A DNA stretch of 64,000 bases. It comes from a virus. Lineage: Duplodnaviria; Caudoviricetes. Numbering within the stretch: position 1 is the stretch's first letter; every line of letters starts with the position of its first letter. Shown here one piece after another: positions 2,276-59,763 of this stretch. The notes under the pieces were generated by a model that saw only the letters and a list, made by a program, of their open reading frames with translations, was not told the origin of the DNA and did no database searches. The DNA is taken from positions 1-64,000 of the IMG/VR virus record IMGVR_UViG_2772190736_000001; one strand, 5' to 3'. The position numbers and the translations under genes were made by a program.

Positions 2276-3019
2276 TCAGGTAGAGGCCTGGATGTCGGCG
2301 ATAAGGACGGTGGCGTTGTCGGCGGAGGGGCGTCCCGGCCCAGCTTCGGCCGAGATACGCACAGCGCCGTCCACGAAGCGGTGGGCGGCAGCGTCCGTGG
2401 GACCGGCGAGTTCAGCGGCCAGGGGGCGCCCGCCGTCTTCGTACGGTTCGTAGGCGCCGTCGGAGGCGAGGACGAGGCGCAGAGGCTCCAGAGGGATGGT
2501 GAAGGCCTCGATGGCGGGGTGTCCGAAGGTGTTTACGCATTCGGCATCGGTCTCGGCGGCGCCGAGGTAAGAGGTGATGATGTTGCGGTTGCCGCGCGGC
2601 GGGCGAACACGGCGAAGGTTGTGATCCTGGGTGATCTTGACGGCCGGATGGTTGCCGACGATGACGTAGGCGCGGGAGTCTCCGCACCATGCAATGGTGA
2701 TGGGCTTGCCGGGAACAGTGACCGCGACGACGACGGCAGCGGCCGGAAGGTCGTATCGAGTGAAGGGGTCGTTGCGTGCGGGGATGGCGGCGTAGCGGTC
2801 GTATACGGCGCGGAGTCCGGCTTCGGCGCTGCCGCGTTGGGCAGCCGCGCGGGCTACACGGCGGGCCGTGTTGCGGGTCCAGGCACTGATGGTGTCGGTG
2901 GAACCGATGCCGTCGAGGAGAGCGTAGGCACGGATGCCGCCGGGGGAGGTGTGGACAGCGGTGGCGTCGCACTGGTGGCTGCGGAGGCCGATGTTCTGGG
3001 CGGTGGCGTAGGTGTCCAT
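2276..3019 (-). CDS. PP2C/PPM-family protein phosphatase-like protein
   Basis: LLDGIG, AWCGDSRAY, TQDH, LASDG and DNATV motifs. Confidence 0.8.
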   Translation of the reverse strand: MDTYATAQNIGLRSHQCDATAVHTSPGGIRAYALLDGIGSTDTISAWTRNTARRVARAAAQRGSAEAGLRAVYDRYAAIPARNDPFTRYDLPAAAVVVAVTVPGKPITIAWCGDSRAYVIVGNHPAVKITQDHNLRRVRPPRGNRNIITSYLGAAETDAECVNTFGHPAIEAFTIPLEPLRLVLASDGAYEPYEDGGRPLAAELAGPTDAAAHRFVDGAVRISAEAGPGRPSADNATVLIADIQAST

Positions 3020-3510: not shown

Positions 3511-3705
3511 TCAGAGGGCGCTGGAGATGTCCTCGGCGAGGCGCTCGATGGTGAGGTTCTCGGGGGCGTGGCCGTCGTGGGGGCGGGGGGTGGAGCGCTC
3601 GTGGACGGCGGTGACGAACCGGTCGTAGAGGTGGTCGTCGGTGGCGAGGAGCGCGATGACGTCGGCGAGGGTGTCGGCGGTGACGCGGGTCGTGATGGTG
3701 GCCAT
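3511..3705 (-). CDS. Hypothetical protein, first gene after palindromic promoter
   Basis: AAGGGG RBS; ATG at 3705. Confidence 0.6.
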   Translation of the reverse strand: MATITTRVTADTLADVIALLATDDHLYDRFVTAVHERSTPRPHDGHAPENLTIERLAEDISSAL

Positions 3706-3765: not shown

Positions 3766-3807
3766 ACCATAAGCCATAACCCATTGCGCTCGCAATGGGT
3801 TATGGCT
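3766..3807 (-). promoter_or_regulatory. Palindromic operator overlapping a putative promoter (copy 1)
   Basis: Perfect 17-bp arms AGCCATAACCCATTGCG-ct-CGCAATGGGTTATGGCT; minus strand TTGCGA-18bp-TATGGT. Confidence 0.75.
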
Positions 3808-4427: not shown

Positions 4428-4994
4428 TCAAGCCGCGTTGCTGATCTGTCCCACGGGCTGCACCGGCACATACCGGCCCTCCGCCCGCGCCTTGTCCTTC
4501 GCCCGCTCCCACGACCGCTTCACCGCGGCAACTGACAGACCAAGCCGTTCCGCCACCTGCTCGTACGACAAGCCCCGCCGGATTCCCCGGTCCACGCCCA
4601 GGCGCCGCTCATCGCGGTTGAGGTGGATGCCGGACGCGCCGTTCGGGTGGGACAGGGCACGCTCCACCGCCACCTCGTCCACTCCAGCGCCCCTCGGCAC
4701 CGAGCCCTCGGCCAGATCCCGAAGCGTCCGCCGGCTGGCTTGCACAGCCTGGATGGGCGCCCCGTACTCGTCGAAGTCCAGCCAGCCCAGCAGCGCGCCG
4801 AGGCTCCGGTCCGGGTCGACAAGGCCGGCCAGGACGACAAGGAGCGCGGTCTGCTGCTGCTGGTCCAGCGCCCCGAGGAGCTCCTCAACGTCCTGGACGC
4901 CACCGTCACCCTGCACGATCGTCGTCAGGCGGGCGGCGACCGGCAGCATGTCCTCCGCGAGGTCCCCGCGGTCCTGGGTGGTGAGCCGCTTCAT
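4428..4994 (-). CDS. HTH DNA-binding protein (sigma region 4-like C-terminus)
   Basis: GLSYEQVAERLGLSVAAVKRSW. Confidence 0.7.
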   Translation of the reverse strand: MKRLTTQDRGDLAEDMLPVAARLTTIVQGDGGVQDVEELLGALDQQQQTALLVVLAGLVDPDRSLGALLGWLDFDEYGAPIQAVQASRRTLRDLAEGSVPRGAGVDEVAVERALSHPNGASGIHLNRDERRLGVDRGIRRGLSYEQVAERLGLSVAAVKRSWERAKDKARAEGRYVPVQPVGQISNAA

Positions 4995-5461
4995 GCCGCC
5001 GCCTCCAGGTCCTGCTGCCTACGCTCGTCCCGGTCGAACCGCTGCACCGCAGCCCGGAGTACCGAACGGTCCACGTTCAGCACGCTGGCCATGTCGGCCT
5101 GCGACATCCCGGCCTTCCGCCATTCGGCGATGTGCTCCCGGGCTTCTATGCACCGGTCCATGGCCTGCCCCGGGCCGCGGGGCGTCACCTTCCGCAGTCC
5201 CCAGCGCTCGTCCTGTGTGAGACCGCCGAGAACACCGAACTGCTCCCCGGTGTCCAGGGCCCACTCCAGGCACGCAACCCTGACCGGGCACGCCATGCAG
5301 ACGGCCTTGGCCTGCGCGGCCTGCTTCTGCGCGGCCTTGCTGACGCCGACGGGGAAGAACAGCTCGGGGTCCGTGTGATGGCAGTTGGCCTGCTGGCTCC
5401 AACGGGGGTCCTTGGGGGTTGTGGCGGCGGGTGTTATGGCGCGGCGGGTTTCGGTGGTCAT
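4991..5461 (-). CDS. whiB: WhiB-family transcription factor with C-terminal HTH
   Basis: W...ANC..TDPELFFP, CMACPVRVAC, GVLGG. Confidence 0.92.
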   Translation of the reverse strand: MTTETRRAITPAATTPKDPRWSQQANCHHTDPELFFPVGVSKAAQKQAAQAKAVCMACPVRVACLEWALDTGEQFGVLGGLTQDERWGLRKVTPRGPGQAMDRCIEAREHIAEWRKAGMSQADMASVLNVDRSVLRAAVQRFDRDERRQQDLEAAA

Positions 5462-9049: not shown

Positions 9050-9394
9050 TCAGTCCTCGATGGGGGTGGGGTGCTCGTCGGCGCAGGCCGGGCACTGGTA
9101 GCGGGGGAGGTTGTACGGGCCGGACTGTTCGGCGCGGCGGAGGCCGGGGGCGGCGCTGTCGAAGATGGCGTCGCAGTAGCAGTCGGGGCAGGCGCACATG
9201 ACGATGCAGCCGCTGGTGGGGAGGTCGACCTTGATGGCCTTGGCCGCGATGGTCATGGCGCGGATGAACGCGTCGGTGTCGCGGGCGTTGTCGGCGTAGT
9301 CCATGCAGGTGTTGAAGATGTCCTGCTGGACGGGGAGGAGGTCGTTGTGGTGTGCGAGGGGCGGGGTGAGGCGGGGGGCGGTGAGCACGGTCAT
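9050..9394 (-). CDS. Cys-rich hypothetical protein
   Basis: CACPDCYC and CPAC; GGAG RBS; first gene after palindromic promoter. Confidence 0.6.
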   Translation of the reverse strand: MTVLTAPRLTPPLAHHNDLLPVQQDIFNTCMDYADNARDTDAFIRAMTIAAKAIKVDLPTSGCIVMCACPDCYCDAIFDSAAPGLRRAEQSGPYNLPRYQCPACADEHPTPIED

Positions 9395-9459: not shown

Positions 9460-9498
9460 ACCATAAGCCATATTCCATTGCGCACGCAATAGGTTATG
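9460..9498 (-). promoter_or_regulatory. Palindromic operator/promoter (copy 2)
   Basis: CCATATTCCATTGCG-ca-CGCAATAGGTTATG; shares TCCACCACCATAAGCCATA flank with copy 1; minus TTGCGT-18bp-TATGGT. Confidence 0.72.
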
Positions 9499-9960: not shown

Positions 9961-10506
9961 TTAGGTTGCACGGGCCGCCAGAAAGTCTCGCCGCTTGATG
10001 TGGTGGTGCGCGATCTGCTTGAGCGTCCACGTCGTGTGCTGGCCGTCGTCGTCCGCGCAGTACCGGTTGAGGCAGACGACGGTCTCGCTGACGCGGTCCC
10101 AGACGAGGCCCCAGGTGTCGCAGCCGGGGCAGGAGTGCCGGCGGACCGTCTTCGCGTCGCCCATGAGGATGGCGTGCTCGAGGCCCTGGCGGTACATGAC
10201 GATGTCGCGGGCCTGCTGGCTGACGGCGCTGAGGTGGGCGGTCTCCTCGACCATCCACCGGTAGACGGCCTGGGCTTCCGCGGGGGCCGGGCGGGCCGGG
10301 CTGGCGCCGTCGCGCAGGACGGCGGTGACTTCGACGGCCTCGTCGACGGCGGCGCGGATGTAGTCGTAGACCTCGAGGCGGATGGGGGCCGAGGCCTCGG
10401 TGGTGGTGGCGGTGCGCTGGGCGCGATGGCCGGCGCGGGGCGTCAGGTACTCGTCGTGCAGGAGGCGGAGGCGTTCCGCCGGGGTGCTGGTGTCCCCACT
10501 GTGCAT
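9961..10506 (-). CDS. Hypothetical protein with C-terminal zinc ribbon
   Basis: CPGC...CLNRYC. Confidence 0.65.
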   Translation of the reverse strand: MHSGDTSTPAERLRLLHDEYLTPRAGHRAQRTATTTEASAPIRLEVYDYIRAAVDEAVEVTAVLRDGASPARPAPAEAQAVYRWMVEETAHLSAVSQQARDIVMYRQGLEHAILMGDAKTVRRHSCPGCDTWGLVWDRVSETVVCLNRYCADDDGQHTTWTLKQIAHHHIKRRDFLAARAT

Positions 10507-17622: not shown

Positions 17623-17993
17623 GGGTGCTGCCGGATGGGGTCGGTGTCGGCGGGGTGGACGGTGGTGAGGGACCGCCCGGTTTGGGCGGCCATGACCTCG
17701 TACCCGGCGTCCGCGAGCGCGGCCCTCAGTCGGCGGAGTCCGGCCGCGTCCCACTGGGGTTGTTCGACGATTCGACCGAGTCGGTAGCCGACGGCGAGGG
17801 CTTGCTTCCAGACGCGGTCGACGGCTTGCGGGTCCAGGTCGGGGAAGAGGAGCTCGGGGAGTTTGTCGGGCTGGCCGACGACGTGGAGCTCGGCGGTGTT
17901 GATGAGGCCGGCGAGGTACTCGCCGTGGGTGGCGGCGCGGTCGGCGAGGGCCTGGTCGACGTGGGCCGCGGTGGTGTCGGGGTGGGCGGTCAT
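17619..17993 (-). CDS. Hypothetical protein
   Basis: ATG coupled to upstream stop; GGAGG RBS. Confidence 0.6.
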   Translation of the reverse strand: MTAHPDTTAAHVDQALADRAATHGEYLAGLINTAELHVVGQPDKLPELLFPDLDPQAVDRVWKQALAVGYRLGRIVEQPQWDAAGLRRLRAALADAGYEVMAAQTGRSLTTVHPADTDPIRQHP

Positions 17994-18838
17994 GCGGCTC
18001 GGGCCTCCAGGGTGGTACGGACGGGCAGGAGTAGCGGGACGGGCCGGGCGGCGGCCGCGGGGCGGACGACTGCCAGGTGTCGGCGCGGGGCTGGGATGCG
18101 CGGCGCCGGGTGCGGGGTGCGGGGGTAGTCGGGCAGCCCGGGGATCACGAGCTGCACGGGGCGGTCGGGGGCGAGGCGGCGTTGGCGGGTGCCGTTGGTG
18201 TTCGGGGCGGCGGCGACCGGCCAGTGGCCGTCCGGTACGATCCGGGCCCCGGCCGACAAGAGACCGTGGTGCTGGGCGGCCTTCAGGAGATCGGCGCGGG
18301 TGGCGGTCTCCTTGTCGAGGCCCAGGAGCGTGCACAGCACCGCGCGGTGCCAGTTAGCAGTCCTCAGGTCCATCCCGGCCCGGTAGGCGACGAGTTCGGC
18401 GTCGGTCTCGCGGGCGAGCGCCCTCAGCACCGCGCGCTTCGTCGGGGACCCGGCCTCCGCGATCCGCTCTGCAGGAACAGGGGCCCCCGCCTGAGCGGGC
18501 TGGGTGGCGCGGCGGGTGATGAGCGCCCGGTGCCGGTCCAGAGACCGCTGCCCGCCCCAGATGCCGTCAGGCTCGACGAGCCCGCCGCCCGGGATCTCGG
18601 TGGCGGCGTACGACCGGCACGCGGCGAGGACGGGGCACCGGCCGCAGATCTCGATCGCGAGCCGCTGGTGCTCCAGGCGCTCGGCCGGCTCCTGGCCGCC
18701 GTCGACGGTGGAGCCGCCCCACGCGTCAAGCGGCAGGTCGGGGTCGGCGGCGGACTGGGTGGGCTGGTCCGGGTCGGGGGCGCAGCCGCGGTAGGCATAG
18801 TGGCGGTGCTCGGTGAGGTCGCGGTAGGTGGTGCTCAC
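17990..18838 (-). CDS. Second, divergent WhiB-family regulator with long C-terminal extension
   Basis: RGC...ICGRCPVLAAC...GIWGG. Confidence 0.8.
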   Translation of the reverse strand: MSTTYRDLTEHRHYAYRGCAPDPDQPTQSAADPDLPLDAWGGSTVDGGQEPAERLEHQRLAIEICGRCPVLAACRSYAATEIPGGGLVEPDGIWGGQRSLDRHRALITRRATQPAQAGAPVPAERIAEAGSPTKRAVLRALARETDAELVAYRAGMDLRTANWHRAVLCTLLGLDKETATRADLLKAAQHHGLLSAGARIVPDGHWPVAAAPNTNGTRQRRLAPDRPVQLVIPGLPDYPRTPHPAPRIPAPRRHLAVVRPAAAARPVPLLLPVRTTLEARAA

Positions 18839-22252: not shown

Positions 22253-22819
22253 TCAGGCCTCGGCGAGCTTCTCGGCCGGCGCGATGTCGTACTTCTCGAT
22301 CAGCCAGGCCTTCGCGATGTGACTGAGGGCCGGCTTGTAGCCGAGCTCGTTCTCACGCTGTTCGGCGGCGGCCTGGAAGCGGGCCTTGAGGTCGGCGTCG
22401 ACGCGGACGTTGAGGTTGCCGGTCTCCAGACCGGTGTTCCGACGGGCGCGGTGAGCGTTCGCGGCCGGGGAGAACGTGCCGGCGATGAACGCCTCCAGGC
22501 CTTCGGCGACGTCTGCGGGCACGGTGCTGGACGCCTTCTGGATCGCGGCGCGGGTGACCAGCGGCATGTGGATCGGCACGTTGGGTGCGGCGGTCCCGGC
22601 CTCGGTGGCGTTGCGCAGGCGGCCCCAGCCGCCGGGGGCGAGGACCTCGTCGACGGCGGCGGCCAGTTCGGGGGCGCCGACTTCGGTGAGGCGGCTGGAG
22701 GCGGCGCGCAGGTCGGCGAGGAGGGTGTCCTTCTTGGAGGGCACGGTTCGGGGTCCCTTCGGGGGCCGCCCGATGCTCCGGCGTGGGGCCGCCGGCGGGC
22801 GGGTTCGGTTGATGGCCAT
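22253..22819 (-). CDS. Putative tandem ribbon-helix-helix regulator (candidate repressor)
   Basis: NVPIHMP..TRAAIQK and NLNVRVDADLKARF...LSHIAKAWL; operator beside its RBS. Confidence 0.6.
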   Translation of the reverse strand: MAINRTRPPAAPRRSIGRPPKGPRTVPSKKDTLLADLRAASSRLTEVGAPELAAAVDEVLAPGGWGRLRNATEAGTAAPNVPIHMPLVTRAAIQKASSTVPADVAEGLEAFIAGTFSPAANAHRARRNTGLETGNLNVRVDADLKARFQAAAEQRENELGYKPALSHIAKAWLIEKYDIAPAEKLAEA

Positions 22820-22835
22820 GCCAGTCTCCTTCTTT

Positions 22836-22857
22836 TCCTATTGCGCTCGCAATAGGA
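22836..22857. promoter_or_regulatory. Palindromic operator (copy 3)
   Basis: TCCTATTGCG-ct-CGCAATAGGA. Confidence 0.72.
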
Positions 22858-22901
22858 CATGAGGGTCTCTGCCGGGCGGCAGGTGCTGCTCGACATGGAG
22901 A

Positions 22902-22947
22902 ACACTACCCATAACCCATTGCGCACGCAATGGGTTATGGGTAGTGT
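22902..22947. promoter_or_regulatory. 46-bp palindrome forming a symmetric bidirectional promoter/operator (copy 4)
   Basis: Perfect 22-bp arms; TTGCGY-17bp-TAGTGT on both strands. Confidence 0.8.
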
Positions 22948-22976
22948 GAAGACACACCACAACGACGGGGGCACCG

Positions 22977-23369
22977 ATGAAGCACACCAACCGCCAGACC
23001 ACCCACCGCACCCTCGCCGATCTCTACCGCGCCATCGACCGCCAGCACGCCGTCACCATCACCTACCTCAAGCCCGGCGAGACCGAGCCCACCATCCGCA
23101 CCATCGAGCCGTTCGACATCCGCACCACCAAAAACGGCCGCATCGAGATCTACGCGATGTGCCGCCTGCGCGGCGACGCCCGCAAGTTCACCCTCGACGG
23201 TGTCCTCTCCTACACGCTCCACCGGATCGCCTTCGTCCTGGAGCGCGAGGAGCCCACCACCGTTGCCGGGCACGTCGTTCCCGCCCGGTCCGTCGCACAG
23301 TTCGTCGCCCGCGAGCTCGGCCGCGACGACTTCCCCCGCTACCGACGCCACTTCCAGACCGCCGCCTGA
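22977..23369 (+). CDS. Stand-alone WYL-domain protein
   Basis: AI.....VTITY......T.RTIEPFDI......IYAMCRLRGDARKFTLD. Confidence 0.82.
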   Translation: MKHTNRQTTHRTLADLYRAIDRQHAVTITYLKPGETEPTIRTIEPFDIRTTKNGRIEIYAMCRLRGDARKFTLDGVLSYTLHRIAFVLEREEPTTVAGHVVPARSVAQFVARELGRDDFPRYRRHFQTAA

Positions 23370-23382
23370 CCCCGGCAACGAC

Positions 23383-23417
23383 GAAGGCCACCACCCCGAA
23401 CCAGGGTGGTGGCCTTC
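23383..23417. terminator. Probable bidirectional terminator between convergent genes
   Basis: GAAGGCCACCACCC...GGGTGGTGGCCTTC 14-bp stem. Confidence 0.75.
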
Positions 23418-23470
23418 AAAGTTCACACGCATTGCGCACGCGCAGCGTAGCCCAGGTGCTCGCCAGAGCG

Positions 23471-24634
23471 CTACAGCGCCAACGGTTCGGCCTCGACCGC
23501 GCGCCGCAGCTGCTCCATCCGCGTCGGCAACGGCGACCACCCATACCGGCCGGCCATCACCATGTTCAGGGCGGTCACCCCCTTGGTGTACGCCATCAGC
23601 AGCCCCTGCGGGCGCAGCGTGATCCCCGGCGGGCCCGCCTTCGACGCGCGCAACGTCACCCACAGCGCCGACCGGCCGCCCTCCAACGGCAGCGCCTCCA
23701 CCACCTGCTCACGGACCGCCAGCCACTGTCGCACCGCGACCTGCGTACCCTCCCGCAGCGCGTACCACTCCACCTCCGGCAGCGGCTCCAGCTCGGCCAT
23801 CGCCGCCAGCACCCGCTGCCGCGTCGCCTCCGACCGCTGCTCCAGCCGGCCCGCCCGAATCACCCGGACCGCCGACGGATGAACCTGCGCGAGCGCGGCG
23901 ATCTCCTCCTCCCGGGACGGCGACGCGCGCTGCGGTCGCCGTCGTACCCCCACCGCCGCCACGCCGTCCGCGAGGTCGTCCAGGCGCAGCGCGGCCAGCT
24001 CACCCGACCGGGCCCCGCAGTCCAGGACGATCCCGACCATCGCCAGCACCCGGGCCCGCTCGGCCTCCGACATGCCCAGGCCGACCCGGTCCGCCGGTAC
24101 GGCCGCAGCCATGTCCGCCAGCCCCCGGTACAACGCCGCCCGGTCCCGCGCCGGGACCATCGCCTTCAGCTCCGGCTGCTCGACCACCGGCAACAGCACG
24201 TCCCGGTCGGGCACCACCAGCTCAGCCAGGATCCCCAGCACGTCCCGCACGATCCGCAGTGACGCCACCGGCAACGGCCGGCCCACATCCTGCGGCCGGA
24301 ACCGCAACTCCCCGGCCGCTGCCAGAGCCCAGAACGCGTGCAACGCAGGCCTCGTGAACAGCTGCGGCGCCGCCCTGCGAGCCCGGTCCGGGATTTCCTC
24401 TCGGTCGACGGCCCGGTCCCACATCCCCACGACCATCCACAGCTGGTCGGCCCGCTGCCGCGATACCTGCAGCAGTACGCCGCCCACGGACGGTACCGGC
24501 TCGCGCGCCTCCCACCGTTCCCGGTCCCTCGGGGCGACGCGCTCCACGACCGCGGCCAGCTGTCGCACCGAGACTGCGGCGTACCGAATGCCGGTCACCG
24601 GGACCGTACCCTTTCCAGCAACAGCTCCCGTCAC
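23471..24634 (-). CDS. Degenerate tyrosine-recombinase-like protein
   Basis: DCGARSGELAALRLDD box I present; HxxR replaced by EQLRR; ends before the His/Tyr box. Confidence 0.65.
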   Translation of the reverse strand: MTGAVAGKGTVPVTGIRYAAVSVRQLAAVVERVAPRDRERWEAREPVPSVGGVLLQVSRQRADQLWMVVGMWDRAVDREEIPDRARRAAPQLFTRPALHAFWALAAAGELRFRPQDVGRPLPVASLRIVRDVLGILAELVVPDRDVLLPVVEQPELKAMVPARDRAALYRGLADMAAAVPADRVGLGMSEAERARVLAMVGIVLDCGARSGELAALRLDDLADGVAAVGVRRRPQRASPSREEEIAALAQVHPSAVRVIRAGRLEQRSEATRQRVLAAMAELEPLPEVEWYALREGTQVAVRQWLAVREQVVEALPLEGGRSALWVTLRASKAGPPGITLRPQGLLMAYTKGVTALNMVMAGRYGWSPLPTRMEQLRRAVEAEPLAL

Positions 24635-25671
24635 AGTCCGATTCCGATCAAGGCATTGTCCTTCTCATCCCACCGGTCGACGATCTGCATGTACCCGTGC
24701 AGGACCTTGCTGTTCGGCTTGTGCCCCGTGACTTGGGCGATTGCCTTCGGGTCCTTCTTCGCCCGACGTGCCTCGGTTGCCATTCCGGACCGTACCGAGT
24801 GCCCGGTGAACAGCACGGGGATCCGGGCCCGCGCGCCGGCGGCGGTGATGATGTCGCCGACGCGCCCGGGGGTGATGCCCTTGGGCTGCACAGCGCCGCT
24901 GGCGTGGATGGCGCGGAACGCGTGCCGGTCGAGGTCGGTCAGCTGCGCGCGTTCGACCCACGCCTTCCACGCGCGCACCGGGCAGGTGGAGGGGCTCTGC
25001 CCGTAGGGCACCGGGACGGTCCTCGGGTCGGTCTTGGACACCATCACGTGCACCAGCAGCCCGTTGCCGTCCGGGTCCTCGACGACGTTCCGCAGCCGCA
25101 GGCCGGCCAGCTCGGCGCGGCGCGCGGCGATGGCGAACCCGAGCAGCAGCATGGCTCGGTCCCGTACGCCGAAGATGTCGTCGGAGCACTTCTCCACGAT
25201 CTGCCGCAACGCGTCGACCCGCATGGCCGGCGCCTTCCCACGGCCACGTGCGGGCTCCTCGTTCTCCTCCGCCTGGCGCCGGTAATCCTTCAGCAGCTCG
25301 CGGGCGGCCTTCGTTGCCTCGGGGTCAACGACGACGCCGTACTCCTGCCGCAGGGTGACCGTGACGCCGGCCAGCTTGCGGTCGATGGTGGCGTAGGCCC
25401 GCCTCTCCCGGTTCCAGAGGTAGTCGACGAAGGCGCGCAGGGTGCCGCGGGTGGCGGCGGTGGGCGGGATCTGGAGCTGGGCGCAGAACTTAGTCCAGGT
25501 CTTCCAGTCGGCCCGGTAGGCGAGGACGGTGTTCTCAGGGCGCTGCTCGGCGGCGTGGCCGTCGGAGGCCGCATCGAGGGCTGCGAGGCGCGCTCGCAGC
25601 TGGTCGTCGTACTCGGCCGGAAGCAGCGCCCGCCCCGAAGTGGGTGCGGGAGTCGGCAGGTTGCTGTCCAC
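24631..25671 (-). CDS. Tyrosine recombinase (Cre-like resolvase/integrase)
   Basis: RDRAMLLLGF..AARRAEL, SKTD, GHSVRSG, TGH...GY. Confidence 0.92.
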   Translation of the reverse strand: MDSNLPTPAPTSGRALLPAEYDDQLRARLAALDAASDGHAAEQRPENTVLAYRADWKTWTKFCAQLQIPPTAATRGTLRAFVDYLWNRERRAYATIDRKLAGVTVTLRQEYGVVVDPEATKAARELLKDYRRQAEENEEPARGRGKAPAMRVDALRQIVEKCSDDIFGVRDRAMLLLGFAIAARRAELAGLRLRNVVEDPDGNGLLVHVMVSKTDPRTVPVPYGQSPSTCPVRAWKAWVERAQLTDLDRHAFRAIHASGAVQPKGITPGRVGDIITAAGARARIPVLFTGHSVRSGMATEARRAKKDPKAIAQVTGHKPNSKVLHGYMQIVDRWDEKDNALIGIGL

Positions 25672-53019: not shown

Positions 53020-54159
53020 TCAGGTGGTGTGCCAGGTGCCGCGGAGGGCGGCGGTGGTGAATCCGGGGCCGTAGGCGACGACCACGCCGGCGGCGCCATC
53101 CTCGGGCGGGTCGGCGTAGGTGCGCTCGAGGACGCGGAGGATCGATACGCCGCCGAGGTTGCCTTCTTCGGTGAGGGTGGCGGTGGAGTGGCGGGTGTCG
53201 ACGTCGTCGAGGCCGAGGGCGCGTGCGGTGTCGGTGATGATGCGGGGGCTGCCGGGATGGATCGCGGCCCAGTCGACGCTCTGGTCGGGGCCGATCCAGT
53301 CGAGGACGGTGGGCAGGACGTCGTCGGCGGCGGTGAGGGCTTCCTTCGTGGAGTCGAAGTGGAAGCCGTCGGTTCCGATGCGGCCGCTGTAGCGGTCGAC
53401 GCTGCCGGGCAGGACGTATTCGAGGGTGTCGTCGGGGCCGGCGATGTGGAGGCCGGGGCCGAGGGGCTGGTCGGAGACGATGCAGGCGGCGGCGGAGTCG
53501 CCGAACAGAGCCTTGTAGATCATCGCCTCGATCGAGGTGTCGTTGTGGTTGTAGACGCTCGAGATGATCTCGGCGGCGATGACGAGGACCTTGGAGCCGG
53601 GTCGGGCGGCGATGAGGTCGACGGCGCGGGTGAGGGCCTGGGTGCCGCCGGCGCAGGCCATGGTGGTCAGGGCGATCCGGCGGACGGTCGGTCTGAGGCC
53701 GAGGGCGGCTATGAGGTGGATGTCGAGGTTGGGGACGGACCAGCCGGTGGAGTGGGTGGTGATGATCGCGTCGATGTCCGGATAGCTGCCGGGGTCGGGT
53801 CCGGGCGTGAGGCCGGCGGCGGCAAGGGCCTGCTGGGCGGCGTTGGTGGCCAGGGCCAGGGCGTCGGTGAAGGCGGCGGTGGAGCGTTCCTCGATGGTGG
53901 CGTCGCCGGACACGGTGGCGGCGGTGAGCGGCCGGCTGAAGTAGCGGGTCTGCACGCCGAGGTTCCCGATGACGCGGGGTATGACGCGCAGCTGCGGGTG
54001 GTCGGGGTGGCGGCCGGCGATGTCGTCGATGATTTCGCTGGTCGTCACCTTGTGGGTGGGCAGGGTTGTGATGGGGCGGGAGATGTAGGGCACGTGGTCC
54101 TCCGGCACGGTGGCGGTCGTCGTGGGGGTGCGGAGTGGGGGTGCGGTCAACGTACACAC
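53020..54159 (-). CDS. Type III polyketide synthase (chalcone synthase/RppA/PhlD superfamily); start may be 54108 or 54093
   Basis: Catalytic Cys (MACAGG), His (IHPGS), Asn (GNLGG); ALFGD.AAA; AYGPGFT. Confidence 0.92.
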   Translation of the reverse strand: MCTLTAPPLRTPTTTATVPEDHVPYISRPITTLPTHKVTTSEIIDDIAGRHPDHPQLRVIPRVIGNLGVQTRYFSRPLTAATVSGDATIEERSTAAFTDALALATNAAQQALAAAGLTPGPDPGSYPDIDAIITTHSTGWSVPNLDIHLIAALGLRPTVRRIALTTMACAGGTQALTRAVDLIAARPGSKVLVIAAEIISSVYNHNDTSIEAMIYKALFGDSAAACIVSDQPLGPGLHIAGPDDTLEYVLPGSVDRYSGRIGTDGFHFDSTKEALTAADDVLPTVLDWIGPDQSVDWAAIHPGSPRIITDTARALGLDDVDTRHSTATLTEEGNLGGVSILRVLERTYADPPEDGAAGVVVAYGPGFTTAALRGTWHTT

Positions 54160-54192
54160 ATGCGGCGGAGTTGGTCCCCCCTGACCTGCGGC

Positions 54193-55029
54193 TCAGGTGG
54201 TCCGGCGGGCGCGGAGCATGGGCAGTCTGGTGTGCTGCTTCTTCTGCCCGGGGTGGTAGATGAGGACGATCAGACGAGCTCCTGGGGCGCCGAGGGGCAT
54301 GGCTGCGCACATGGTGACGTGCCCGGGGCCTTGGAGGGCGTGGTGTATGGGGCGTTCGTCGCCGTCGGGGTGGATGTGGGCGCCGCCGGATTCCCAGAGG
54401 GGTGCGAGATCGGGGTCGGCGCGGGCGTCTTCCGCGATTTTGAGGAGGGTTTCGTCTTCGGGGCGGAGGGCGAGCGCGGCGCGGAGCTGGGGCAGGACGA
54501 GGGGGGCCCAGACTGCTTTCCAGTCGGTGAGCATGGTGCGGCCGCGGGGGTCGAGGAGCATCCAGCGCATCGTGTTGGCGGGGACGTGGCTGTCGGGGAA
54601 GAGGTCGGCGAAGGCGGCGTTGTGGGCTATGAGGTTCCAGGAGGCGTCGTTGACGTAGGCGGGGTGGGCGATGCCGTCGACGGCTTCCTGCCAGACGCCG
54701 GGGATCTCGAGGCCGGAGGACGGGTTGAGGGGGTAGGGCGGGTCACCGATGCCGGCGTACCTGCACAGGCAGCCCCACTCCTGCTCGTTGAGGCCGAAGA
54801 GGCGGCCGACCTGCTCGAGGTAGTCGACCGGGGGGTTGGGGTAGCGGCCCGATTCGAGGCGGTAGTACGTGTTGGCGGCGCGGCCGGTGAGTTCGTCGAC
54901 CTGCTGCTGAGAGAGGCCGGCGGCGCGGCGGCCTTGACGGCTGGGCCGGGTGAGGCCGTGGTCTTCCGGTTCGATGAGATCGCGGCGCTCGGAGAGGAGC
55001 GCCTTGAGGGCCTTGCGGTTCATCTTCAT
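54193..55029 (-). CDS. XRE-family regulator with MmyB-like ligand-binding domain
   Basis: L..RR..I.P...GL......GRR..GLSQ..V...Y.RLESGR; PAYV.D..WNL.AHN; N..RW. Confidence 0.88.
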   Translation of the reverse strand: MKMNRKALKALLSERRDLIEPEDHGLTRPSRQGRRAAGLSQQQVDELTGRAANTYYRLESGRYPNPPVDYLEQVGRLFGLNEQEWGCLCRYAGIGDPPYPLNPSSGLEIPGVWQEAVDGIAHPAYVNDASWNLIAHNAAFADLFPDSHVPANTMRWMLLDPRGRTMLTDWKAVWAPLVLPQLRAALALRPEDETLLKIAEDARADPDLAPLWESGGAHIHPDGDERPIHHALQGPGHVTMCAAMPLGAPGARLIVLIYHPGQKKQHTRLPMLRARRTT

Positions 55030-58061: not shown

Positions 58062-58595
58062 GGCATCGGCTCCTCGGGGCTTGGGGTGATACGGCGGATG
58101 CGGAGGGGCGGTCCCAGCGGCGGAGGCGGGTCGTTGCGGTGCTTCCACGCCTTGAGGGTGCGTACGGGGTGGACAGCGAGAAGGGCGGCGATCTCAACGG
58201 CCAACACGGGTTGCGCGGCCCACCAGCGCCAGTCCCGGCGGGTGATGCGTCGTCCGTACGTCAGCCAGTGGGCCCAGTCGGAGGCGCGGTGGCCGAGGCG
58301 GACCCGGCCGAGGGCGTAGCCGACGGCCAGAGAAGTCAGGATGATGGCCGTCGTCGCTGGAGTAGGCGGGGAGGTGATGCTGGCAGGTCTTGCAGGCGCG
58401 GACGGCGGGGTTCTTCCAGCAGCGTCCGATGTGCGCGATGGCGGCGGTCTTCTTGCTGCGGGACTGCCGGCAGTGGGGGCACTGGTACCGGGTGACCTGG
58501 ATGACGAGGGGGTCCTCGGCGGGGATGGGCGGTGTGACCGGCGCCGGGTCGGGGTTGGGGGTGTTCCAGGGCAGGAGGTCGAGGTCGGTCGTCAT
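58058..58595 (-). pseudogene. Probable deletion fusion of a zinc-finger gene and a headless membrane-protein gene
   Basis: YQCPHC..H..C..NP...CKTC ORF loses coherence near 58360, where another frame (TAIILTSLAVGYALGR...) without a start codon runs to 58058. Confidence 0.45.
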
Positions 58596-58981
58596 CGGCG
58601 CGGCTCCTGGGCGGGAATGTAGCCGAGGCGGCTGGCGGCGTTGAGGGCTGCGTCGGCGATGGTCTGGCAGTCGTCGAGGGAGTGCCAGCACTTGAGGGCG
58701 TTCAGGGTGGTGCTGACGGCGTTGGTGGCGAGGGCGCGCTGTTCTTCGCTGTGGGTGGTCTGGTCGTCCCAGATGAGTTCGGTGGCGCCGTTGTGGCCGT
58801 GGATGGCGATGGCGTCGTCGAGGTTGTTCCAGGAGACGGTGGAGGGGCGTTCGCCACGCCAGCGGATGGCGACGGTGCCGTCGGGCCACTGGATGCCGTC
58901 GGCGATGCGGCCGCAGCCGGAGACGCCGGAGATGTCGGTGTGGCGTTGGAGGTGGAAGCGGCGGGGTTCGGGGTCGGCCAT
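58592..58981 (-). CDS. Conserved-type actinophage protein
   Basis: RRF.L.R..DISGVSG.G..A.G..W.DG.V..RW...IHGH.G.T; GGAGGAG RBS. Confidence 0.75.
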   Translation of the reverse strand: MADPEPRRFHLQRHTDISGVSGCGRIADGIQWPDGTVAIRWRGERPSTVSWNNLDDAIAIHGHNGATELIWDDQTTHSEEQRALATNAVSTTLNALKCWHSLDDCQTIADAALNAASRLGYIPAQEPRR

Positions 58982-59086
58982 GTGGCGTCTCCTCCGGGGA
59001 AGGGCGGGGTGGGTCAAGGGTCGCGCGGTTCGGCGCGGTTGATGCCCCTGCTCGGCTTGCCCTCGATTGGGGTGGCCGGTGTCCAC

Positions 59087-59128
59087 ACTCTACCCATACC
59101 TCATTGCGTACGCAATGGAATATGGGTA
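59087..59128 (-). promoter_or_regulatory. Palindromic operator/promoter (copy 5)
   Basis: TACCCATACCTCATTGCG-ta-CGCAATGGAATATGGGTA; minus TTGCGT-17bp-TAGAGT. Confidence 0.72.
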
Positions 59129-59160: not shown

Positions 59161-59763
59161 ATGGACCAGGGGTGGGCGGCTGTCATTGCCGCGGGGGTAG
59201 CAGCTGTCGTTGCAGTGGCCGCGAGTTTCATCGGTGTCTGGCTGGGCCGGCGCACCGTTCGCGACCAGGCGCAGGTCGAGCACGGGCAATGGCTCCGGAA
59301 CCAGCGCCAGGAGGCCTACGTGCAGTGCCTCGACACGTGGGACGGGGCGATGCGCGCCTTCGAGGCGCTCATCGATGAAGCCGAAGAGCGGAAGCGGCAG
59401 TACCGATGGGAGACCGACAATGTCGGCGGCAACCCGTTCTTTGCCCAGGAGATCTTCGGCGTGGTGGAGGAGATCTCCGGCCCTGTGAATGAGGCCCTGG
59501 AACGCGTGCGGCTGCTCGGGCCGGATGCGGTGGAGAGGGCAGCGAAGAACCTGGAAGACGCCTTGAACGGCATCGGCGGCGCGGTCCGGGCTGGCACCAG
59601 TGAGGAGGATTGGGAGGAGTGGCCCAACCACGCCTTCTGGTACGAGGCGCGAAGAAACGCCACTGAGTGCCGCCGGAATTTCTTCGACGAGGCGCAGGCC
59701 GTTATCCGGACTGCGCCAGACACAGCACGGCGCTCGCTCTGGCGCTCGCGCTCTCCACGCTGA
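59161..59763 (+). CDS. Membrane-anchored helical accessory protein
   Basis: N-terminal TM helix, QWLR.QR.EAY, V.L.GP. Confidence 0.75.
   Translation: MDQGWAAVIAAGVAAVVAVAASFIGVWLGRRTVRDQAQVEHGQWLRNQRQEAYVQCLDTWDGAMRAFEALIDEAEERKRQYRWETDNVGGNPFFAQEIFGVVEEISGPVNEALERVRLLGPDAVERAAKNLEDALNGIGGAVRAGTSEEDWEEWPNHAFWYEARRNATECRRNFFDEAQAVIRTAPDTARRSLWRSRSPR

Follow-up and report, generated by a model that had tools for sequence, protein, structure and literature searches.

Introduction

Two described immunity systems come closest to the locus analysed here. By description it resembles the immI region of phage P22, where ribbon-helix-helix (RHH) repressors act at close divergent promoters and the gene for an antagonist is under RHH control; by way of working it resembles the immunity of P1, a plasmid prophage in which many operator copies serve to keep the early functions off and whose repressor, C1, is modulated by the small proteins Coi and Lxc. 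We have analysed a divergent gene pair in a 64,000-nucleotide stretch of DNA, hereafter the window, from IMG/VR record IMGVR_UViG_2772190736_000001. The window comprises bases 1-64000 of contig C27, which has 90,633 bp and overlapping ends and is therefore a circular replicon; the element is a circular, 90.6-kb Streptomyces phage-plasmid of the pZL12/pSAM1 type. Its left gene appears, from a structural model, to encode a single-chain tandem RHH protein, its right gene encodes a lone WYL domain, and the palindromic site between them recurs elsewhere on the element. P22 has two small homodimeric RHH proteins, Arc and Mnt, with Ant as neighbour, whereas here one chain appears to hold both RHH units, six operators are spread over the element and the neighbouring gene encodes a WYL protein. 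Scattered operators are a trait of the P1 type (six C27 sites, five of them at promoter-like sites, on an element with ParA and ParB genes), although C1 does not belong to the RHH proteins and acts on asymmetric operators, while those described here are palindromic.

Other comparisons are partial. Omega of pSM19035 and KorA/KorB of IncP plasmids are likewise single autoregulated plasmid proteins, each acting on repeated sites to coordinate several operons. Omega belongs to the RHH proteins and reads arrays of heptads, and the arms of the palindrome in the window may be readable as xCAxxxC heptads (ACACTAC, CCATAAC, CCATTGC). Here, in contrast, the carrier is a phage-plasmid and the presumptive targets are phage early genes. 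In the CI/Cro switch an HTH (helix-turn-helix) repressor carries an S24 peptidase, and two DNA-binding proteins compete for the operators; here no called protein of contig C27 matches Peptidase_S24, no CI-like HTH-peptidase repressor was found among the called proteins of the window, as a first-pass annotation of the sequence had said, and the rightward product has no recognisable DNA-binding domain. AvtR, VirC2, DndE, a permuted single-chain Arc and the chain 9f0x_E resemble residues 78-180 of the left protein in structure, with no detectable sequence relation, and to our knowledge none of them is a phage-plasmid repressor.

The combination of a single-chain tandem RHH with a WYL domain is known as a fusion in RspWYL1 (PDB 6OAW), which, in the excerpted text of PMC6547453, binds single-stranded RNA and boosts Cas13d; the two modules stand here as separate divergent genes in a phage-plasmid, a form that we have not found in print. 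WYL barrels also occur in the HTH-WYL-WCX regulators PafBC, DriD, BrxR and CapW, for which the excerpted text of PMC11804915 gives single-stranded DNA (ssDNA) as known ligand, whereas the WYL protein of the window lacks both HTH and WCX, keeps three of six ssDNA-binding residues of PafB and ends in an Ala-Ala tail.

We found no published account of the choice between plasmid carriage and lytic growth in pZL12/pSAM1-type elements, which are widespread in Streptomyces. The circuit at this locus is small and testable, comprising a single operator, a probable repressor of unusual build and a lone WYL domain. Our best reading overall, held tentatively and at somewhat less than an even chance, is that the RHH protein represses an element-wide regulon in the carrier state and that the WYL protein is a repressed, labile member of that regulon. 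The sites, their restriction to the element, the predicted folds, the conservation and the expression of homologues were observed; from these we infer the binder and the role of the WYL protein. No role has been assigned to the many lone WYL proteins, and a clear phenotype here would supply one; as an orthogonal regulatory part, the pair of operator and repressor could also be of use in Streptomyces.

Results and Discussion

A symmetric hub between two divergent genes

The region between the two genes is occupied by a 46-bp perfect palindrome (O2; 22902-22947, organised as 22+2+22), the 22-nt arms of which (22902-22923 and 22926-22947) are 100% complementary across a 2-nt gap. It is the longest perfect palindrome of the window, in which the arms found measured 22, 17, 11, 10 and 10 nt; in 20 first-order Markov simulations the maximum arm length was 8-13 nt. 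Its central 14 bp, ATTGCGCACGCAAT (22918-22931), match the operator core exactly, and the whole palindrome overlies two back-to-back promoter-like sites. Rightward (22919-22947, +), TTGCGC (22919-22924) is followed after 17 nt by TAGTGT (22942-22947), 30 nt before the WYL ATG; leftward (22902-22930, -), TTGCGT (22925-22930) is followed after 17 nt by TAGTGT (22902-22907), leaving a 5' untranslated region (5'UTR) of about 76 nt to the RHH gene. The two -35-like hexamers are thus adjacent and back to back. A TAnnnT -10 is typical of actinobacteria and is what the hub hexamers fit, which makes promoter activity plausible on sequence grounds.

A second, shorter palindrome (O1; 22837-22856), CCTATTGCG-CT-CGCAATAGG with its core at 22840-22853, lies in the 5'UTR of the RHH gene, 5 nt from the AAGGAG ribosome binding site (RBS; 22826-22831). 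Centre to centre, O1 and O2 are 78 bp apart, a spacing that is identical in two related elements (G001 and G005). No TAnnnT follows O1 in either direction, so that it would be an operator without a promoter. The first-pass annotation had described the 46-bp palindrome as giving TTGCGY-17-TAGTGT on both strands of a symmetric bidirectional promoter, with a second operator beside the RBS of the RHH gene; arms, hexamers and O1 were all recovered in these positions, the palindrome as a promoter- and operator-like site. Its further claim, that the WYL gene has its own terminator, has a counterpart in the sequence: a terminator-like hairpin with a 14-bp stem and a 7-nt loop lies 3' of the gene (23383-23417, +) and folds at -31.8 kcal/mol (z -5.5; none of 200 shuffles as good), but the terminator scan made no call there, because the hairpin lacks a T run.

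Directly past this hairpin, before the convergent gene of a 375-aa protein, is a half operator, ACGCATTGCGCACGC (23427-23441), 93% identical to the left half of O2 plus its centre, which our model leaves unexplained.

Copies of the operator across the element

The core pattern ATTGCG-N2-CGCAAT occurs exactly five times in the window (at 3783, 9477, 22840, 22918 and 59103) and six times when up to two mismatches are allowed, a number reached in none of 100 shuffles. The whole 8.1-Mb genome assembly holds six exact copies, all of them on C27 (the sixth at 78066); a reversed-pattern control gave no match in the same 8.1 Mb, and the looser pattern ATTGC-N4-GCAAT is likewise confined to C27. All six sites are intergenic, and at five of them TTGCGN is followed after 17-18 nt by a TAnnnT that faces a gene at a distance of 44-99 nt; the hub alone shows this spacing on both strands. 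Within the window, the first scattered operator (3772-3807) is a 17+2+17 palindrome with its core at 3783-3796 and leftward TTGCGA-18-TATGGT, situated between the SSB gene and the gene 3511-3705 (-). The second (core 9477-9490) has leftward TTGCGT-18-TATGGT upstream of the gene 9050-9394 (-), and the third (core 59103-59116) leftward TTGCGT-17-TAGAGT upstream of 58592-59017 (-), divergent from 59215-59763 (+). We regard it as very probable that these sites mark a real element-wide regulon.

Two explanations that would dispense with a regulator of the element's own were weighed. A host regulator was rejected as binder, with no site outside C27 in 8.1 Mb; since all six sites are on C27, a host regulator with chromosomal targets is unlikely. 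The core motif is also unlike known LexA and PafBC boxes, for which no scan was made. Alternatively, there might be no dedicated regulator at all, the symmetry arising from two back-to-back promoters that share sequence. The TTGC...GCAA that is conserved across relatives does coincide with the two -35-like hexamers, and the core spacing varies between 13 and 14 bp, yet the one-way sites 3783, 9477 and 78066 keep both palindrome arms though they lack a second -10, and O1 has no -10, so that the symmetry is more than that of two promoters. The operator flanks, moreover, are common within one element and different between elements, and every match in the genome falls on C27; we consider this explanation barely credible.

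The site at 59103 belongs to a second divergent pair, in which the product of 59215-59763 (+) has an N-terminal hydrophobic, membrane-like stretch; a homologue of the product of 58592-59017 (-) (phrog_7499) also adjoins the distant WYL module of locus L024, described below. The sixth operator, outside the window (C27:78066-79287), heads a rightward operon encoding HIT-family and nucleoside 2-deoxyribosyltransferase-like proteins, which may place a nucleotide or DNA-modification function under the same control.

The left gene: a predicted single-chain tandem RHH protein

The left gene (22253-22819, -) encodes 188 aa. Its AlphaFold2 model, built with the homologues described below (pLDDT, predicted local distance difference test, 82.9), comprises a disordered basic N-terminal arm (1-28; IGRPPKGPR), three helices (29-76) and the units RHH1 (80-113) and RHH2 (133-176), each a beta-alpha-alpha element (E80-86/H87-96/H100-113 and E133-139/H142-159/H165-176; pLDDT 84-96 over 81-180); the strands of the two units pair into a single sheet. 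The protein thus appears to be a single-chain tandem RHH, which agrees with the RHH-like character first assigned to it. Comparison of residues 78-180 by VIA-align returned 9f0x_E (which we take to be a chain of the F relaxosome; Z 6.5), DndE (Z 6.2 and 4.5), RspWYL1 6oaw_B (Z 5.7, 96 residues, root-mean-square deviation (rmsd) 3.3), permuted single-chain Arc (Z 4.2), VirC2 (Z 4.2) and AvtR (Z 3.4); among the top 25 entries, seven belong to RHH-type or single-chain RHH proteins (Z 3.4-6.5), all at values below 8, a range that can reflect a common arrangement. The values are modest and the list is coherent, pointing to single-chain or tandem RHH proteins.

The presumptive reading strands carry residues of the expected kind. 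Strand 2 reads N135-L-N137-V-R139, with N137 and R139 invariant in 21 sequences; strand 1 reads N80-V-P-I-H84, and eight of 25 homologues have R at the H84 position. According to the excerpted text of PMC6547453, RHH strands that read DNA have an uncharged polar residue at position 4 and a positive one at 2 or 6. Strand 2 fits this rule with its polar residue at 4 and positive residue at 6, whereas RspWYL1, in the same text, lacks the canonical DNA-reading residues. Covariation between the H84 position of strand 1 and an operator base among the 25 homologues (W, F, G or S with CTTGC; H or R with ATTGC; one exception) was set aside as evidence because the sequences are not independent.

Homologues form 20 clusters, every one of them from Streptomyces, and most lie on contigs of about 90 kb. 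The arm IGRPPKGPR is kept at the protein level in the upstream DNA of related loci, which supports the ATG at 22819 over the shorter start of the NCBI homologues. Between the RHH gene and the gene for a single-strand annealing protein (SSAP), no fold better than shuffles was found (z -1.8; 8/200), and a terminator there was rejected, the hairpin not being significant.

The right gene: a WYL barrel with an ssrA-like end

The right gene (22977-23369, +) encodes 130 aa that match PF13280 over residues 12-79 (E 2.9e-11; 43.6 bits against a cut-off of 21.8). The model (pLDDT 72.5) shows a helix (9-22), a five-stranded Sm-like barrel (24-85), a poorly predicted linker and helices at 106-126, the C-terminal helix being conserved (AQxxARELGRD). 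No HTH was detected by Pfam, the sole helix before the barrel being 9-22, and no WCX domain was seen, since past residue 85 there are only the low-confidence linker and helices 106-126; the earlier description of a WYL-only protein therefore holds. In Foldseek searches the barrel matches PafBC, CapW, BrxR and DriD (E 6.7e-5 to 1e-2, probability 1.00), and it superposes on BrxR, CapW and DriD with an rmsd of 2.1-2.9 over 70-80 columns.

The C-termini of the family are uniform: 115 of 120 homologues end in AA and 108 in LAA, and the protein of the window ends in Thr-Ala-Ala (-TAA). A C-terminal Ala-Ala marks ssrA-tagged proteins, as well as Streptomyces PopR and ClgR, for ClpP-dependent degradation. 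The ssrA-like end suggests a rapid, ClpXP-type turnover of the WYL protein.

The module in related elements

Among phage records, Streptomyces phage-plasmid ZL12 is the nearest, with about 70% identity and the same gene order around the locus. Forty complete plasmids carry the WYL gene, almost all with a size of about 86-102 kb, and it falls into 418 protein clusters; among 50,697 phage records only ZL12 has it, with a weak match in Galactica. A profile scan of genome contigs provided 24 WYL loci (L002-L025). A divergent RHH-like homologue accompanies the WYL gene in 22 of them by profile hidden Markov model (HMM) and in 23 when L010, recognised by eye, is added; the same pairing is present in ZL12 and pSAM1, and the co-occurrence of the two genes that the first-pass annotation had named among its checks was observed. 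The distant exception, L024, pairs its WYL gene with a small HTH-like protein and different palindromes, which suggests that the WYL protein is functionally paired with a regulator. In five loci, and in ZL12 and pSAM1, the RHH protein is duplicated to a four-RHH form, one chain of which would span a whole palindrome.

The arrangement of two sites is found again in these loci as well as in ZL12 and pSAM1: one site at the RBS, and a TTGC...GCAA core with flanking -10s about 60 nt before the WYL ATG. Of five relatives that were retrieved whole, four have five or six scattered copies; G002 showed no convincing scattered site with the pattern used.

Expression of the homologous module of pSAM1

Plasmid pSAM1 of S. 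ambofaciens ATCC 23877 holds the same module: RS36555 matches the RHH profile (E 3.7e-42, two domains) and RS36560 is its WYL protein, 62% identical to that of the window. The expression values that follow are from the pSAM1 rows (about 14-82 kb; 37 samples) of supplementary spreadsheet s018 of PMC11302927. Raw counts of RS36555 range from 288 to 1483 in all 37 samples and those of RS36560 from 2 to 71; for HT versus MP24 the log2 fold changes are +1.03 for the RHH gene and +2.98 for the WYL gene. At each of the three scattered operator-like sites of pSAM1 the fold change jumps: across 19697 from +1.57 (RS36255) to +5.65 (RS36260), across 34228 from +2.13 (RS36400, SSB) to +7.49 (RS36395), and across 40172 from +3.62 (RS36465) to +7.95 (RS36460). 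The genes behind these three sites are the most strongly induced in those rows, and two of the sites, 34228 and 40172, are positional orthologues of the window sites 3783 and 9477, respectively. As far as these rows extend, the RNA data fit the RHH protein as a maintenance regulator and the WYL gene as an induced gene, and may offer a starting point for experiments.

In HT medium only early and accessory pSAM1 genes rise in these rows, while tail and capsid genes are silent. The excerpted text of PMC11302927 reports that pSAM1 is strongly expressed in HT and that purified particles gave almost no pSAM1 reads, and early-only induction fits the authors' remark there that pSAM1 particles were not seen. 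Possibly induction is partial in the pZL12/pSAM1 family, or pSAM1 is a defective phage.

Which protein binds the operators

We consider the RHH protein the probable binder of the operators, on the grounds of its adjacency, its autoregulatory layout and its conservation. That another protein of the element binds the palindromes, the RHH protein having a TraY-like or DndE-like accessory role, is in our estimate quite improbable. Candidates would be a conserved 181-aa protein (9961-10506), a WhiB-like protein and an MmyB-like regulator. The first has homologues in all five relatives and a weak match to a PHROG annotated as DNA-binding protein (E 1.7e-4), the RHH domain finds its best structural matches in relaxosome and DndE proteins, and a 14-bp palindrome suits HTH dimers too. 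Placed against these points, O1 stands at the RBS of the RHH gene itself in the window, in ZL12, in pSAM1 and in most loci, which is the layout of an autoregulated repressor, and in the rows cited every one of the 37 pSAM1 samples shows expression of the RHH homologue, as expected of a maintenance regulator. The MmyB-like regulator has homologues in four of the five relatives (tblastn), as has the RHH-like protein, and the WYL protein in five; as the family's repressor it was rejected, because G004 and pSAM1 lack the gene yet keep such sites.

A conventional repressor located outside the window would be a very improbable binder. The candidate is an XRE-type protein of 401 aa (C27:66357-67562) that has an N-terminal HTH_31 domain (E 6.9e-14) and stands at another divergent junction. 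Its flanks, however, contain no inverted repeat at the settings used, it has no S24 peptidase domain, and it occupies the place of the pSAM1 GntR regulator beside transfer-like genes. Homologues by tblastn are absent from all five relatives, and pSAM1 has none, while all of these keep the operator system; it is therefore unlikely to be the repressor of the family, which on this point favours the first-pass annotation. The GerE and HTH_17 proteins of the element were rejected likewise, each without a tblastn homologue in the five relatives. The HTH_31 protein, the C-terminal part of which is helical, is probably a regulator of the plasmid transfer module.

Several observations weigh against the RHH protein as carrier-state repressor and the WYL protein as a member of its regulon. 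The binder is proposed from the features given above; besides the low structural Z values, the RHH protein matches no Pfam family at E <= 0.01 and no PHROG, and Foldseek returned nothing for its model at E <= 0.001 (best 8.2e-2, probability 0.96). The RHH protein of G003 shares just 37% identity with that of the window and yet the scattered sites are alike, and in some relatives the hub core is 13 rather than 14 bp, which together make a strict match of protein and site awkward. A consensus scan called no sigma-70-type promoter at the hub at its threshold, because each hexamer matches the E. coli consensus in just three of six positions. In the pSAM1 rows, which describe a homologue and not the element of the window, the Bet and methylase genes 3' of the RHH gene stay low, so that the leftward operon may end after the RHH gene; RHH RNA there exceeds WYL RNA about tenfold or more despite symmetric hub promoters, an asymmetry that our model does not explain. 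Finally, the residues of PafB required for ssDNA binding (R181, Y196, R204, R208, R211 and R214 in the excerpted text of PMC11804915) were mapped onto the WYL protein by HMMER alignment to 9fnd_X; three of six are kept (R41, R65 and R69), while E57, T72 and G75 differ. Position 75 is R in 70 of the 120 WYL homologues, and position 57 is never aromatic.

A proposed switch and the part of the WYL protein

In the carrier-state repressor reading, the operator, a core of ATTGCG-N2-CGCAAT with element-specific flanks, would overlie the -35 and spacer of five promoter-like sites, each of which would head an early or accessory operon, with the sixth copy in the 5'UTR of the RHH gene. The centre of the palindrome would fall near -30 of the expected start, over -35 and spacer, which is where repressors act. 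The tandem-RHH protein would bind the six sites, keep the WYL gene and the early operons silent while the element is in its plasmid (carrier) state, and limit its own synthesis through O2 and O1. Since the two -35 hexamers abut each other back to back, a single bound complex would close both directions of the hub, and RNA polymerase would be unable to occupy both hub promoters simultaneously. The WYL protein would be a regulon member with an Arg-rich Sm-like barrel of the ssDNA-sensing kind and no DNA-binding domain; it might antagonise the repressor, as antirepressor or sensor, while its own gene is silenced by that same repressor, and loss of repression could then be amplified through WYL positive feedback and reset by proteolysis.

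That the WYL protein acts on the switch at all is possible, at a little below an even chance, and a role as antirepressor is rather unlikely. The first-pass annotation, which had the WYL protein as a possible damage sensor, antirepressor or titrator of host PafBC-type regulators, is in our view supported in part; it did not note the six operator copies or the conserved Ala-Ala tail. Improbable, in our view, is the most specific version, in which the WYL protein is a ClpXP-timed sensor acting in trans that, given an ssDNA or nucleotide signal or saturated proteolysis, docks by its C-terminal helix onto the RHH protein and frees the six operators. If true, the docking sensor would represent the fused RHH-WYL architecture of WYL1 divided between two proteins, and would be the first WYL domain that decides the plasmid-versus-lytic fate of a phage, in a family carried on at least 40 complete Streptomyces plasmids.

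The WYL protein could, instead, be mere cargo of a regulon that the RHH protein represses, an early, short-lived sink for an ssDNA or nucleotide signal that, for example, blunts host regulators of the PafBC, BrxR or CapW type or aids the neighbouring recombination genes, and that leaves the switch itself untouched. Its fold matches ssDNA-binding WYL domains, the SSAP gene is nearby, and in the pSAM1 rows it behaves as an induced member of the regulon. The host genome contains nine other WYL matches, all in frames of 320-1157 aa and including an adjacent pair on C54, and lone short WYL proteins are common (652 cluster representatives at E <= 1e-3, many of 90-190 aa). Tight linkage to a divergent DNA-binding gene in 23 of 24 loci speaks against cargo, however, as does the exception, L024, in which the partner is a small HTH-like protein. 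So do the retention of just three of the six PafB residues and the fusion of tandem RHH and WYL, with intramolecular contacts, in RspWYL1 (excerpted text of PMC6547453). We judge the cargo role doubtful.

Gene content of the element

C27 encodes ParA, ParB, SSB, SSAP, a C-5 methylase, two WhiB-like proteins, a tyrosine recombinase and a full siphovirus structural block; terminase and Ku genes are also present on C27, outside the window (Ku homologue at C27:84140-85024). Nearly all genes are transcribed leftward, the WYL gene being among the very few rightward ones. Leftward genes include those of the SSAP (phrog_3290, E 6.7e-56), the C-5 methylase (PF00145) and a WhiB-like protein (PF02467), and the last two matches confirm the methylase and WhiB genes first placed to the left of the hub.

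Beyond the hub, a tyrosine recombinase (PF00589) followed by the 375-aa protein (phrog_6657, unknown function; kept in four of five relatives) is encoded at 23471-24598 (-) and 24631-25671 (-); the pair may serve the resolution of plasmid dimers rather than integration of the element. Genes for a PP2C-like phosphatase, a sigma-70 region-4-like helix protein (an 'endonuclease' in PHROG) and two WhiB-like proteins lie at 2276-3019, 4428-4994, 4991-5461 and 17990-18838, all on the minus strand. Between the structural block and the operator at 59103, a type III polyketide synthase (Chal_sti_synt domains) and the MmyB-like HTH regulator (53020-55029, -) form a pair that is present in four of five related phage-plasmids and absent from pSAM1, and that could be a maker of a small-molecule signal or cargo of benefit to the host.

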